Origin: Nitrososphaera viennensis EN76
Lineage (GTDB): Archaea; Thermoproteota; Nitrososphaeria; Nitrososphaerales; Nitrososphaeraceae
Length of the DNA stretch: 32,000 bases
Assembly (NCBI RefSeq): GCF_000698785.1
Contig: NZ_CP007536.1
Location: 1,740,001-1,772,000, forward strand
Direction: 5' to 3'
Numbering within the stretch: position 1 is the first letter of the stretch; each line of letters opens with the position of its first letter. Below the pieces are notes generated by a model. The model saw nothing but the letters and a program-made list of their open reading frames with translations. It made no database searches and was not told the origin of the DNA. Positions 1 to 4,259 of the stretch are shown one piece after another. The translations under genes were made by a program, and so were the position numbers.

Positions 1-626
1 ACGCTTTCTGCGGTGTATTTCGTCACCGACGTGGGCACCGGCTCGATTTCCACGCCGGGGTTCATCTTGCGCAAGCGATCAGCAGCAGCTTCGACCTTTA
101 CCCTGCCGATGTCCTCTTCTGTGTAAAGGTGCTGCCTGTGCAGGTTCGTGATTTCAATGACGTCCCTGTCGACTATGCGGAGCTTGCCGACGCCCATTGC
201 CACCAGTTGCGTCACCACAGGGTTTCCGATCCCGCCTGCGCCGACCACGCACACCTTGGCAGCGCGGAGCTTTTCCATTCCCTCAAAGCCTATTTCTTCA
301 AGCATCACCTGCCTAGAGTAGCGCTGCAGTTCCTCGCTTGTCAGCTCGGCGCCACCGGCAACCGCCGGCAGTATGTAGACGTTGTCGCCGTCCTTGAGCG
401 CAGTCGTCATGCCGCCTGAAAAGCGCATGTTCTTGCCGTTCACGTAGATGTTGATGAGCGAGCGGGGCTTGCCGTTGTGGTCAAACACGCGGCGCTTGAA
501 ATCGTCGCCCATCTGCTCCGACACCTTGTTAAAGGCGTCCTGGAGATCCGAAGCGTCTATGGGGAGCTTTTTCTCTCCCTGGCCCTTGTTCAATACCGAC
601 GGGACTGTAAATTCCACTTTTGCCAT
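1..626 (-). CDS. MoaD/ThiS-like ubiquitin-fold domain (aa 1-92, ending ...ILPAVAGG) fused in frame to a ThiF/MoeB/UbaA-type E1-like adenylyltransferase; the C-terminus runs off the window
   Basis: Absent from the ORF track because the window edge truncates it. My minus-strand translation from ATG 626..624: MAKVEFTVPSVLNKGQGEKKLPIDASDLQDAFNKVSEQMGDDFKRRVFDHNGKPRSLINIYVNGKNMRFSGGMTTALKDGDNVYILPAVAGG-AELTSEELQRYSRQVMLEEIGFEGMEKLRAAKVCVVGAGGIGNPVVTQLVAMGVGKLRIVDRDVIEITNLHRQHLY... No stop to position 1. RYSRQ and the GAGGIG Rossmann loop are E1-like hallmarks. The diglycine is encoded at 351..356. Confidence 0.8.
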   Translation of the reverse strand, partial: MAKVEFTVPSVLNKGQGEKKLPIDASDLQDAFNKVSEQMGDDFKRRVFDHNGKPRSLINIYVNGKNMRFSGGMTTALKDGDNVYILPAVAGGAELTSEELQRYSRQVMLEEIGFEGMEKLRAAKVCVVGAGGIGNPVVTQLVAMGVGKLRIVDRDVIEITNLHRQHLYTEEDIGRVKVEAAADRLRKMNPGVEIEPVPTSVTKYTAES

Positions 627-636
627 GTGCCTATAA

Positions 637-1854
637 TCACCCGATCATCGCCGAGACAGCGGCTGCGTCCGGCTTGACAGCGGTAAGTTTCGGCAGCACC
701 CCTATAATTGCTTCTGTGGCCTTTAACCCGTTGCCGGTGACGTAGCAGACTACCTTTTCGTCCTTGTCTATGTTGCCTTCGTCCACCAGCTTTTTCAGCA
801 CGCCCACTGAAACCCCGCCGGCCGGCTCTGTGAATATGCCTTCTGACTGCGCAAGCATCATGATGCCGTCCCTTATCTCCTCGTCGCCTACTTCCTCCGC
901 AAGGCCGCCGTACTGCTTCAACCTCTTTAGCACGTAAATGCCGTCGCCCGGGTCGCCGATTGCGAGGCTCTTGGCTATCGTCTCAGGCCTTTCCACCGGG
1001 ATAACCTCGTCAGAGTTGCGCTTGAACGCGTCGACCACCGGCGCGCACCCGTGCGGCTGCGCCGCCACTATCTTGAGGTTCTTGACGCTGCCGACAAGAC
1101 CGAGCGCGTGCAGCTCTTCAAAGCCCTTGCAAATCGCGTTGAGCATCGCGCCCGAGCCGACAGGGATTATCAGCCTGTCAGGCACCTCCCATCCAAGCTG
1201 CTCGGCGACTTCGTACGCAAGCGTCTTTGACCCTTCCACGTAGTAGGGCCTCATGTTGATGTTGACGATGCCGTAACCCTTGGAGTCGCCGATTATCGAG
1301 GCGACCCTGTTTGCGTCGTCGTACGTGCCCTCTACGGCGACAAACTCGGCGCCGTACGAAAGCGCCTGCGCTATCTTGACGTGCTCGATGTCAGAGGGCG
1401 CAAAGATGTAGCAGGGAAGGCCTGCCTTTGCAGCATGCGCGGCGGTGGCGGAAGCAAGGTTGCCCGTCGACGCACATCCTACCGCCTTTAGTTTCGTCTC
1501 CTTGGCCCTTGACACCGCGACGCCGGCGGGCCTGTCCTTGAACGAAAACGTCGGGTTGACCGAGTCGTTCTTGATGTAAAGGTTCTTCAATCCCAGTCGC
1601 TCGCCCAGCTTGTCTGCGTGCTGGAGCGGCGTCAATCCTGCGTTGAGGCTGACAACGTTTGCCTTGTCCGTGATGGGGAGGAGCTCGAAATAGCGCCAGT
1701 AGGTCTTTTCCCTAAGGTCAAACGTGTGCCTGTTTATCGACGCCTCCCTGTACGTCACGTCCAGGGGGCCGAAACACTCTTCACAAACGTACCGGAACTG
1801 CGGCTCGTATTCCTTGCCGCATTCTCTGCACCTTAATGACTTGATACTTCCCAT
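637..1854 (-). CDS. thrC: threonine synthase family PLP enzyme with N-terminal Cys4 zinc ribbon
   Basis: 405-aa ORF. Zinc ribbon CRECGKEYEPQFRYVCEECFGPLDV and PLP-lysine block NPTFSFKDRP. Length and motif order are typical of archaeal ThrC. Its stop (637) lies 10 nt before the next ATG (626). Confidence 0.88.
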   Translation of the reverse strand: MGSIKSLRCRECGKEYEPQFRYVCEECFGPLDVTYREASINRHTFDLREKTYWRYFELLPITDKANVVSLNAGLTPLQHADKLGERLGLKNLYIKNDSVNPTFSFKDRPAGVAVSRAKETKLKAVGCASTGNLASATAAHAAKAGLPCYIFAPSDIEHVKIAQALSYGAEFVAVEGTYDDANRVASIIGDSKGYGIVNINMRPYYVEGSKTLAYEVAEQLGWEVPDRLIIPVGSGAMLNAICKGFEELHALGLVGSVKNLKIVAAQPHGCAPVVDAFKRNSDEVIPVERPETIAKSLAIGDPGDGIYVLKRLKQYGGLAEEVGDEEIRDGIMMLAQSEGIFTEPAGGVSVGVLKKLVDEGNIDKDEKVVCYVTGNGLKATEAIIGVLPKLTAVKPDAAAVSAMIG

Positions 1855-1957
1855 GATTTATTTAACGCCCTTTCTCTGAAAGCTAATTATTAGAACATCT
1901 CTAAGCACATTTTAAGTATTGCTTAACTTTCTAGTGCATTGATATTGTAATACTTAA

Positions 1958-1971
1958 CAGGAAATTTCCTG
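1958..1971. promoter_or_regulatory. perfect 14-bp palindrome CAGGAAATTTCCTG between the hisI stop and the thrC start
   Basis: Read directly. A third half-site CAGGAAAT lies at 2002..2009. A 9-bp inverted repeat TTAAGTATT (1912..1920) / AATACTTAA (1949..1957) abuts the palindrome. Confidence 0.3.
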
Positions 1972-2023
1972 CAAATTTTCATAGTTTTGACAGCAGGCGT
2001 GCAGGAAATGCAAAGAAATCCGG

Positions 2024-2353
2024 CTATTTCAGCACATTGTGGAAGCAGGTGCGCTCGCCAGTGTGGCACATCGGCTTCTCTGAATCCACGATGTACAGCA
2101 GCGCGTCCGAGTCGCAGTCTACCAAAATTTCGTGCACCGGCTGGACGTTTCCGGACTCTTCGCCCTTCATCCAGAGCTTGTTTCTCGACGTGCTCCAGAA
2201 CCATGCGTTTCCAGTTCTTATCGTGTTTTCAAGCGCCTCTTTGTTGGCGTAGACGAGCGTCAGCACGTCCTTTGTCCTGCGGTCCTGCACTATCACGGGG
2301 ATCACGCCCCCGCGCTTGGCAAAGTCGACGTCGCCGGCAGACTTGACGTTCAT
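2024..2353 (-). CDS. hisI: phosphoribosyl-AMP cyclohydrolase
   Basis: 109-aa ORF with FWSTSRNKLWMKGEESGNVQ...VDCDSDALLYIV...CHTGERTCFH, the conserved HisI core. Confidence 0.9.
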   Translation of the reverse strand: MNVKSAGDVDFAKRGGVIPVIVQDRRTKDVLTLVYANKEALENTIRTGNAWFWSTSRNKLWMKGEESGNVQPVHEILVDCDSDALLYIVDSEKPMCHTGERTCFHNVLK

Positions 2354-2800
2354 TTTGCTATTCTCTGGTTCGTAGCGCGCAAGGCGGAGAAATAAACCTA
2401 TATTGTTTGGTCTGCAACCCTCTTTTGCCTTGTCTACTGCCGAGTCGTCGCTTGATTTTGACGCGTACTGGCGGGCGTGGCTTGCGTCGCGCCTGGCAGA
2501 GATGCGGGAAAAGGCGGCGGCAAGGGCGCGCCAGCAGCAGGAAGAAGAACAAGAGCAGCAAGAAGAAGAGGAATGACTATGCTAGCAATCTTTAGGTGCA
2601 CGCAGCTGCTATATCATGATTACATATATGCTTGAGGCACTGCTTGCGCAGCTTTTTCCCTGCGAGCAGCCGGCTTGCAACGCGTACGACGCCGCAATAA
2701 AAATCGCTTACGCTGTGATCGTGACTGCGGCGATAGTCGTTGTCATTGCATATGTGCGCAGGCGCATTTCTAATCGCTCCCTGCGCTGACTTGGGCAGGC

Positions 2801-2812
2801 AGAGATATATTC
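2801..2812 (+). promoter_or_regulatory. TATA-like box (GATATATT) about 25 nt upstream of the tRNA 5' end
   Basis: AT-rich octamer at 2804..2811. The spacing to 2834 fits archaeal TATA-to-TSS distance. Confidence 0.4.
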
Positions 2813-2833
2813 CCCCATCGTAGAAATGCTGTC

Positions 2834-2936
<103 letters not shown>

Positions 2937-2939
<3 letters not shown>

Positions 2940-4259
2940 TACTTTACCCACATATGCATATTGAAAGCCTGATTTTTCCATGCCGTACCTGTGCAACGGC
3001 TTTGTCAGGTGCCGGTGTGCCTTGGGCGTCGGCACGTACAGCCCAGGCTTTATCGTGCGCTCTTTTTCCACCATTATTTTCTGCGCTTTTTGGTCGCGGA
3101 ACTTGCATCTTTCGCACTGGTAGCCTTTGTTCCTGCCCTCTGACTTCATGCGCTTGCCGCACATCCTGCACAGCGGGTTTGCGACGTCATAAACAGGCGC
3201 CAGCTTCTTTACCAGCAAGTATTCGACGTTCAGTATCTTGGGGTGCAGAGTCGTTCCCTTGCGCACCCCGACGCCTATCTCGATGAGGTCGCCCGGCGCA
3301 AGCGCGACTGCGATGTTTGCAAGGCCGGTCGGCTCGTAGATCGCCGCCGGCATCTCTGCCCCTGCCGCCTGCTCCACCGAAAACATCACGTGCCCTCCCT
3401 CCATCGCGTACGGCCTGCTCTTTACCCTGCACATGACGTAGCCGGCCGTGTACGCCTTTGCCGCGCGCAGGTCAAGCTCGTTTTGCAGGTGCATGTTGGT
3501 GCCCTGGTTTGAGCGGAACACCATATGGCCTTCCAGTTTTTCCGCCGCCGGCAATAATATTCTGGAAATGGCTGACGACACCACCTCCGGGCTTTCGCCC
3601 CGGACGCCAAAGAACACGGGGTCGGACCCGTGCGGCGCAATCAACACCCTGCCGTGATTCTGGTCATAGTTGTTGAACGTATATGGAAAAGTTTCCTTGC
3701 TGAATTTGATTATCCTGTCATTGTCCACCACCCGGGGTGTGCCGCAGTTTTCCGGCGTGCGGTACGCAATGAGCTCAAACGTGTGGTCGCCGTCAAGGGC
3801 GCAGCCCATCGCGCCAAGCGAGCCGACGAGCCCCTGCCCGTTGCCAAACGTCCAGAATCTTATCCCGCACTCTTTTGCCACCTTTTCGGCCTGCTGCCGG
3901 CTGGACACATCGCACATGGCAAAGGCGCTAAACTGCTTCAATTTCTCTGGCAGCAATTCTCCTTCCAGAAACGCCACGCCCGGGTTTGCCCCGCTGCCGA
4001 TAGCCGAGCCTTCCTCCACCGCCTGCCTGACGTAATCAACAACCCTGCCTGCATCCCTTACCCTTGCCCGCAGGCAGACTGCCCCGTTGCCCCGCGTCTT
4101 CCAGGGGATGTTGGGGTTGAGCCGTATAAGCAACGGATAATCGACAAGCTCCGCCCCCATCCTCTCTTTCAGCTCTCCTGCGACCCGGAAGGCCAGGTGC
4201 GTCGTGCACCGGCCTGCCCTTGAGTCGGTGTCGTCAAAGGCCATGTGGAGGAGCGTCAT
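2937..4259 (-). CDS. tiaS: tRNA(Ile2) 2-agmatinylcytidine synthetase
   Basis: 440-aa ORF. N-terminal FDDTDS motif and C-terminal zinc ribbon CRMCGKRMKSEGRNKGYQCERC. Size and architecture are typical of TiaS. The stop codon overlaps the tRNA 3' end by 3 nt on the opposite strand. Confidence 0.85.

Follow-up and report, generated by a model that had tools for sequence, protein, structure and literature searches.

A threonine-synthase-like enzyme and a fused sulfur carrier-E1 protein form a probable homocysteine pathway of ammonia-oxidizing archaea

Introduction

Ammonia-oxidizing archaea (AOA) are among the most abundant microbes of soils and oceans and grow on mineral media, and their genomes show none of the standard homocysteine-making enzymes. 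How homocysteine could be made in these organisms is the question raised by a gene pair of Nitrososphaera viennensis, which lies at one end of the 32,000-nucleotide stretch of DNA analyzed here (the window, G000:C1:1740001-1772000, G000 being the complete, single-contig genome of 2.53 Mb, 99.9% complete). The first gene of the pair codes for a pyridoxal phosphate (PLP) enzyme of the threonine synthase (ThrC) family, the second for a ubiquitin-like sulfur carrier fused to an activating enzyme of the E1 type. We propose that this operon is probably the AOA version of the MetM/MetO pathway, in which O-phosphohomoserine is converted to homocysteine with a protein thiocarboxylate as sulfur donor.

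The MetM/MetO route was first described in 2024 for Streptomyces albulus (Hasebe et al., Appl Environ Microbiol, as referred to in PMC13759103 and PMC12172450). GapMind 2026 (PMC13759103) lists MetO (carrier), Mec (JAMM hydrolase), MoeZ (E1-sulfurtransferase) and MetM (ThrC homolog) as its components, and describes MetM as commonly misannotated as threonine synthase. A preliminary description of the window, made from the sequence alone, had named this route correctly, as GapMind 2026 (citing Hasebe et al. 2024) confirms. It had also remarked that carrier and activator are normally separate polypeptides, which is true in general, although this particular fusion has already been published: as "Ubl-E1-TBP in Thaumarchaeota" it was catalogued by Makarova and Koonin in 2010 (PMC2948915), and a 2024 fusion survey reported a "MoaD-MoeB" fusion in 61/98 Thaumarchaeota (PMC11237513). 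Neither study linked the neighboring PLP enzyme gene to the fusion, which was read as MoaD-MoeB (molybdopterin) or left unassigned. Architecture and pathway are each published; what is new is that the two occur together and apparently provide AOA with their only way to homocysteine.

Results

Layout of the gene pair

The pair consists of the following elements (window positions). The PLP enzyme gene, the 10-nt gap, the carrier domain with its Gly-Gly end, the AEL tripeptide and the start of the E1 were all found where the preliminary description had put them.

637..1854, minus strand: PLP enzyme with ThrC fold, 405 aa, predicted to be of the MetM type from family matches, clade membership and 11 clade-separating residues
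627..636, minus strand: spacer of 10 nt that separates the PLP enzyme stop codon (TGA) from the start codon (ATG, at 626) of the carrier-E1 gene
351..626, minus strand: ubiquitin-like sulfur-carrier domain (ThiS/MoaD/MetO type), residues 1-92, with the C terminus PAVAGG
342..350, minus strand: junction A93-E94-L95 right after Gly-Gly, with a predicted cleavage site between GG and A
1..341, minus strand: N-terminal part of the ThiF/MoeB-type E1 (residues 96-208 of 443), with the RYSRQ arginine and the GAGGIG ATP loop

Only a piece of the carrier-E1 open reading frame lies in the window (3..626, minus strand); the whole gene spans G000:C1:1739298-1740626 on the minus strand and codes for 443 aa. 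The two genes had been called translationally coupled. They do read in the same direction at a distance of 10 nt (5-60 nt in relatives, 78 loci), an arrangement that does not by itself show coupling.

The PLP enzyme groups with carrier-linked ThrC homologs

The 405-aa PLP enzyme matched PALP (E = 3.6e-74), TIGR00260 thrC (306.9 bits) and PRK08197 (312.6 bits), in agreement with its earlier assignment to the ThrC family. It carries a zinc ribbon (CxxC...CxxC) at the N terminus, and its PLP lysine, K106, sits in an invariant SFKDR motif. A second ThrC homolog of 446 aa, 34% identical to the window enzyme, is encoded at C1:392.6-394.0 kb (P0272).

Both proteins were placed in a maximum-likelihood tree of 38 sequences (LG+C20; support given as ultrafast bootstrap/SH-aLRT), the functional anchors of which were picked by gene context alone. 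All 10 ThrC homologs with an adjacent carrier, among them the window gene and a gene of Nonomuraea gerenzanensis, formed one clade (clade A, 100/99). The ThrCs of thrB-thrC-hom operons from the same archaeal class, the Brevibacillus hom-thrC-thrB gene and the 446-aa AOA paralog formed another (clade B, 100/100). Eleven alignment columns are fixed differently between the two. Clade A has D97, L133, A136, E157, Y178, N182, R202, Y205, S209, C270 and G346 (window numbering), whereas clade B has, in the same order, E, T, S, A, F, L, N, R, Q, A and S; several of the latter residues presumably line the ThrC phosphate site (a literature search on ThrC phosphate-site residues gave nothing usable), and the 11 differences might reshape this pocket. 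The 446-aa paralog keeps 11/11 clade B residues, and the window enzyme differs at 11/11. Judged by grouping with thrB/hom-operon ThrCs and by the clade-fixed residues, the window enzyme is probably not a genuine ThrC, and it shows traits expected of a MetM, namely ThrC fold, catalytic lysine, separation from genuine ThrC and an adjoining GG carrier.

The bacterial anchor was obtained by tblastn of a plasmid collection, in which an 11.8-Mb Nonomuraea chromosome is mislabeled as a plasmid. The N. gerenzanensis gene of clade A is preceded by an S-adenosylmethionine (SAM) riboswitch (RF00162, 68.7 bits) and followed by the gene of a 91-aa MetO-like protein ending in AVAGG. Its product belongs to the same clade as the window enzyme and is 47% identical to it, and served as a stand-in for S. 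albulus MetM (A0A059WBP2).

From these data, we predict the 405-aa protein to be a carrier-thiocarboxylate-dependent homocysteine synthase and its 446-aa paralog to be the real threonine synthase. The preliminary description had named a genome with this gene as its only thrC as a finding that would speak against its homocysteine proposal. Such is not the case here, as the second paralog falls in the true ThrC clade. A separate thrB-thrC operon is also present in the non-AOA genomes that carry a clade A gene.

The same data bear on a more conventional explanation, by which the PLP enzyme would simply be a second, ordinary threonine synthase. The carrier-E1 protein would then be a SAMP-type system of general use, serving tRNA 2-thiolation, protein conjugation or both like UbaA in Haloferax, and the adjacency of the two would come from nothing more than a shared amino-acid/housekeeping neighborhood. 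The enzyme does pass the thrC equivalog models, the genome contains a single E1 as well as an NcsA/TtuA-type PP-loop ATPase (C1:1084 kb), a JAMM protease encoded elsewhere (JAMM1) weakly matches the desampylase model, and histidine genes lie just upstream of the operon. We nevertheless consider this explanation improbable: the enzyme is separated from thr-operon ThrCs with 100/99 support and by 11 clade-fixed differences, the adjacency persists from actinomycetes to archaea, where the fusion has been split (G065 and L098, see below) it is the carrier, rather than the E1, that remains beside the PLP gene, and the genome would be left without a homocysteine route.

The genome yielded no alternative route to homocysteine

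Homoserine kinase (thrB), homoserine dehydrogenase (hom) and aspartokinase (ask) are present in the genome. No MetB/C/Y/Z-type enzyme (Cys_Met_Meta_PP, PF01053) was found in it, the best candidate being a 36-bit partial match to another aminotransferase, and HcyBio was found neither in this genome nor in any of the 81 genomes sampled from the class (0/81), of which 40 are AOA and 41 non-AOA. In the same sample, PF01053 occurs in 0/40 AOA vs. 30/41 non-AOA genomes, and one of the five non-AOA genomes with a clade A gene has it. We regard this complementary distribution as a supportive pattern and not as statistical proof. Taken with the carrier-linked clade that includes a SAM-riboswitch gene and with the second paralog in the ThrC clade, the lack of any other homocysteine route found in the genome supports the homocysteine function that had been suggested for the pair, and the operon is the apparent sole homocysteine route of AOA.

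The PALP proteins of the genome are IlvA, TrpB, a CysK/M-like enzyme, an odd CysK-like protein and the two ThrC homologs. Cysteine is already covered by the CysK/M-like enzyme, and cysteine synthesis as the main role of the pair was rejected on account of this gene. The odd CysK/CBS-like protein (529 aa; G000:C1:1491756-1493345, plus strand) gave fragmentary cysteine-synthase-like PALP matches in two stretches (96.6 bits).

A thiocarboxylate-dependent synthase of this kind might also make a different sulfur compound, either cysteine, formed as by CysM/CysO with O-phosphoserine as the substrate, or a specialized thio-amino acid. The logic of a PLP enzyme served by a GG carrier is indeed shared with CysM/CysO, and substrate specificity is not readable from sequence with the methods used. 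To us such a product seems very improbable, given that the enzyme has the ThrC fold and not the CysM fold, that its clade includes a SAM-riboswitch gene pointing to methionine, that a CysK/M-like enzyme is already encoded and that the clade is distributed in a manner complementary to MetY/MetB-type enzymes. A molybdopterin function was rejected as well: MoaE (PF02391) had no match in the 99.9%-complete genome, whereas a control search was positive in 11/14 named genomes.

The carrier-E1 fusion is a genuine protein

The carrier domain belongs to the ThiS/MoaD family (Pfam, residues 25-92, E = 9e-9); the moaD_arch and SAMP1 models match below their cut-offs. It ends with ...YILPAVAGG at residue 92, which is followed by AEL and then by TSEELQRYSRQ...GAGGIG, residue 96 of the fusion aligning with residue 4 of Escherichia coli ThiF at the start of the E1 part. 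Compared with the MetO-like protein encoded in the N. gerenzanensis riboswitch operon, the domain has 30% identity (E = 5e-15). It shows the beta-grasp pattern in an AlphaFold2 model as well as the GG terminus, yet in the precursor this GG is peptide-bonded to the E1.

The E1 domain (ThiF, residues 103-336, E = 4.9e-80) has two CxxC pairs (zinc), and its core superposes on ThiF/MoeB with a template modeling (TM) score of 0.96 (AlphaFold2 model, Foldseek). Residues conserved among 68 homologs comprise G129/G131/G134, R105, R164, K177, D221, C262/C265/C335/C338 and the crossover-loop C278, so that all the hallmarks of a ThiF/MoeB/UbaA-type E1 (GxGxxG loop, arginine finger, catalytic Asp, CxxC pairs and crossover Cys) are in place. 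Rhodanese or cysteine motifs had been suggested for a search of the complete E1 reading frame: cysteine motifs are present as the two CxxC pairs, while a rhodanese domain with a persulfide cysteine (MoeZ/MOCS3/Uba4 type) was not found in the 443-aa protein. The C-terminal domain of about 100 aa has a faint TBP match (E = 0.052) and a beta-beta-alpha-beta4-alpha pattern in the AlphaFold2 model. A search of the ESM Atlas with this domain returned unnamed clusters only, and in the Foldseek search with the full-length model the E1 core accounted for most of the matches, so that the C-terminal fold was not identified. At the start of this TBP-like domain, Cys360 of an LCGR motif (P0001; G000:C1 about 1739547-1739549) is conserved in 61 of the 64 E1 homologs that have the domain, which span 27-95% identity. 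This cysteine is a candidate persulfide relay for E1s of the rhodanese-free kind. The AlphaFold2 model of the fusion has a predicted local distance difference test (pLDDT) score of 91.3, with residues 90-93 at the Gly-Gly junction as the only stretch below 50.

The fusion is no assembly or frameshift artifact, a possibility raised earlier. Over 100 protein clusters with 82-98% identity contain it, and it occurs in full length in 36-37/39 Nitrosopumilaceae-type genomes (the sister family) of the class sample. The carrier-E1 protein of one relative (G020; L025 1113-2912) reaches 599 aa because its C terminus is extended by some 155 residues, and a 599-aa cluster representative also exists (P0123).

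The fusion is the one ThiF-type E1 of the genome. Because it is the only one, the E1 is likely multi-purpose and probably also serves other carrier functions, e.g., tRNA thiolation. Two ThiS-family domains were found in the genome, both of them fused and neither a stand-alone carrier. The other one belongs to a Ubl-Cgi121 fusion of 260 aa (G000:C1:859574-860356; L006 1492-2274, plus strand), in which ...VVHGG is followed by a Cgi121/KEOPS-like domain, and matches a fusion described by Makarova and Koonin in 2010 (PMC2948915); S17e is encoded just upstream of it (L006 1232-1483). Since both carriers are fused at GG and a single E1 is present, both would need processing and would share this E1.

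Conservation and natural variants of the operon

A profile scan of genome contigs with the clade alignment yielded 80 AOA species loci and matched AOA exclusively. The carrier-E1 gene lies downstream of the thrC-like gene on the same strand in 78/80 of them, and the remaining two contigs stop within 84 nt. In the class sample, a PLP enzyme ortholog (69-73% identity) is located immediately upstream in every genome that has the fusion. PAVAGG is invariant in 77 AOA loci, with a small residue (S, A, G or T) following. The conserved gene linkage, which the preliminary description had left to be checked, is therefore seen in AOA loci, in the sampled Nitrosopumilaceae-type genomes and also in unfused relatives.

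Among these relatives, two non-AOA genomes (G041 and G045) have three separate genes for a thrC-like protein, a carrier of about 88 aa with a stop right after GG, and an E1, and three others (G001, G037 and G061) have a thrC-like gene with a separate carrier gene. Three separate genes are likely the ancestral state. The G061 carrier beside the MetM-type gene (L019 2821-3093) ends in ...GGGSSTIRR, six residues past the glycines, and by analogy with what is reported for other JAMM-processed carriers would need C-terminal trimming.

Natural splits occur in two Nitrosopumilus genomes (G065, L021/L022; L098 5203-5481), where a stand-alone carrier with AVAGG directly before the stop lies beside the PLP gene. 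In G065, an E1 with its own start codon is located 730 kb from the carrier, and in L098 a transposase-like open reading frame comes after the carrier. Two further Nitrosopumilaceae-type genomes (G016 and G048; 99% complete, 70 and 30 contigs) have neither a MetM-type gene nor any ThiF-family E1. They keep the ThrC paralog and two JAMM genes, and MetY-type and HcyBio genes were not found in them either. Either the two genes were lost together, which would imply methionine auxotrophy, or their absence is due to a gap in the assemblies.

Release of the carrier

Adenylation of a carrier requires a free C-terminal carboxylate. Therefore the precursor would have to be cut after Gly92, and cleavage after GG appears to be needed to make a working carrier. 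The preliminary description had left two options for the diglycine at the junction, proteolytic release or adenylation in cis. Release is favored by the unfused orthologs and the two split AOA, which have a stop codon exactly after GG, where the fusion has its junction, while in-cis adenylation of the uncleaved fusion is excluded on chemical grounds as no free carboxylate exists.

The search for JAMM proteases that had been suggested returned two genes with intact HxH...S..D motifs, JAMM1 (C1:296.8 kb) and JAMM2 (C1:250.4 kb), both elsewhere in the genome and both present in 40/40 sampled AOA. Cleavage would fit the GG stops seen where the carrier is unfused or split off, a junction that is invariant and predicted to be flexible, and the two JAMM genes, and JAMM1/JAMM2 are likely candidates for cutting the carrier-E1 precursor. 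Their tie to the operon is by analogy only, because they are unlinked to it and retained in genomes without it.

The same two facts, no operon-linked JAMM gene in AOA and JAMMs that persist in genomes without the operon, would also fit a scenario without a dedicated protease, in which the fusion cleaves itself or is cut by a non-JAMM protease, or in which the PLP enzyme draws on another, free carrier while the fused one has a non-catalytic role in regulation or docking. We give this scenario little credence. The only other ThiS-family domain is itself fused (Cgi121), and the invariant GG, together with stop codons that come immediately behind it when the carrier is unfused or split off, argues for a working carrier.

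Arrangements with a linked JAMM gene were observed in two relatives from the class. G033 has a row of genes (L026, G033:C19:122000-128000) for a MetY-like PLP enzyme (774-2072), a JAMM protease (about 2107-2451) and a carrier-E1-rhodanese fusion (2512-3924), which by its gene content appears to be an HcyS/HcyD/HcyF/MetY-like homocysteine cluster with a fused carrier. In G003 (L027), a JAMM gene directly precedes a similar carrier-E1-rhodanese fusion.

Neighboring features of the window

Upstream of the pair, the window contains the following features.

1855..2023, minus strand: intergenic region between hisI and the PLP enzyme gene, without a match in the Rfam search
2024-2353, minus strand: hisI, phosphoribosyl-AMP cyclohydrolase, 109 aa, directly upstream of the PLP gene
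2937-4259, minus strand: TiaS, tRNA-Ile2 agmatidine synthetase, 440 aa, with 3/3 TiaS domains

hisI is located directly upstream on the same strand in 66/80 AOA loci, and Nitrosopumilaceae-type loci have more histidine genes (hisF/A, hisH and hisB) before the pair. A third conserved partner (NIL, TusA, JAMM or desulfurase) was sought in the 80 loci and not found; histidine genes upstream were the only ones.

Discussion

The PLP enzyme of the window and its fused carrier resemble MetM/MetO of S. albulus in several respects. In both cases, a ThrC-homologous PLP gene lies directly upstream of a GG-terminated carrier of about 90 aa, a separate genuine ThrC is encoded in the same genome, ThrB supplies O-phosphohomoserine, and a JAMM hydrolase as well as a ThiF-type E1 are needed, which for the archaeon is our prediction. 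Unlike in S. albulus, the archaeal carrier is translated as the N terminus of its E1, this E1 is part of the operon and the only one of the genome, the operon has no SAM riboswitch, the JAMM genes are unlinked, and the pair is apparently the sole homocysteine route of a whole lineage and not an extra one.

In the HcyS/HcyD/HcyF/MetY system of Wolinella succinogenes and the CysO/CysM/Mec/MoeZ system of Mycobacterium tuberculosis, too, the PLP enzyme that makes a thiol amino acid receives its sulfur from a protein thiocarboxylate, and the GG terminus is exposed or recycled by a JAMM protease. The archaeal PLP enzyme differs from both in having the ThrC fold and a predicted phosphorylated substrate, being neither a MetY (fold type I) nor a CysM. 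A fused carrier that depends on JAMM cleavage has a precedent in the Deinococcus MoaD-MoaE fusion, which is cleaved by the JAMM protease DR0402 (as cited in PMC11237513). There, too, a GG carrier is fused at its C terminus to a partner enzyme and needs cleavage for activity, as we suppose for the archaeal protein, the fusion partner of which is an E1 and not the sulfur acceptor enzyme. The architecture itself is that of the published Ubl-E1-TBP or MoaD-MoeB fusion (PMC2948915 and PMC11237513). What sets the archaeal protein apart from the MoaD-MoeB reading (PMC11237513) is that no MoaE was found in this genome and that the conserved partner is a MetM-type enzyme.

We propose the following sequence of events. 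Carrier, E1 and C-terminal domain are translated as one 443-aa precursor, as the open reading frame shows. A JAMM/MPN+ metalloprotease encoded elsewhere, with JAMM1 and JAMM2 as candidates, would cut after Gly92 and free the Gly-Gly carboxylate. The carrier C terminus would then be adenylated by the E1, the ThiF/MoeB active site of which is intact, and a persulfide or sulfide would turn the acyl-adenylate into carrier-COSH, for which the conserved Cys278 and Cys360 of the C-terminal domain are candidate residues. Going by MetM homology, the ThrC-fold PLP enzyme would eliminate phosphate from ThrB-supplied O-phosphohomoserine and add the thiocarboxylate sulfur at C-gamma. Homocysteine would finally be released, possibly once the acyl group has shifted from S to N and a JAMM enzyme has hydrolyzed the product, as happens with CysO/Mec, and be methylated to methionine.

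Several observations weigh against the proposal that the operon is a MetM/MetO-type pathway. The window enzyme scores higher than the 446-aa paralog against solved ThrCs (231 vs. 184 bits) and passes the NCBI thrC models. The paralog sits on a long branch (1.59), and its placement is for this reason at some risk of long-branch attraction. The functional anchor for MetM is one actinomycete operon, recognized by its riboswitch and carrier adjacency. The complementary distribution involves few independent lineages, which are related, with AOA counting as one event. The E1 lacks the rhodanese domain of MoeZ that would explain the sulfur donor step. The JAMM genes never adjoin the operon in AOA and are kept in the two AOA genomes that lack operon and E1. 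Further, no riboswitch was found upstream of the operon (no Rfam match at E <= 1 in window positions 1-2600), i.e., the archaeon shows no methionine-responsive element; SAM-riboswitch control is a regulatory trait of the bacterial operons that catalysis does not require. Considering these points together with the evidence presented above, we still regard the MetM/MetO-type pathway as the probable function. A farther-reaching version, by which all AOA homocysteine is made via the carrier-E1 precursor, JAMM release is obligatory and possibly regulated, and a persulfide relay through Cys360 replaces the rhodanese, appears rather unlikely to us. If true, the Cys360 relay would represent a kind of sulfur-transfer module that has not been described for an E1 before.

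The carrier-E1 fusion, catalogued since 2010 without a function, would gain one by this assignment, and the systematic misannotation of the two proteins as "threonine synthase" and "MoaD-MoeB / molybdopterin" would be corrected in hundreds of genomes. The fusion would also provide a clean system for the release and loading of a ubiquitin-like protein that is made with its own E1, with the natural split variants as built-in controls. For the AOA themselves, assigning the pair would close a gap in sulfur and methionine metabolism.

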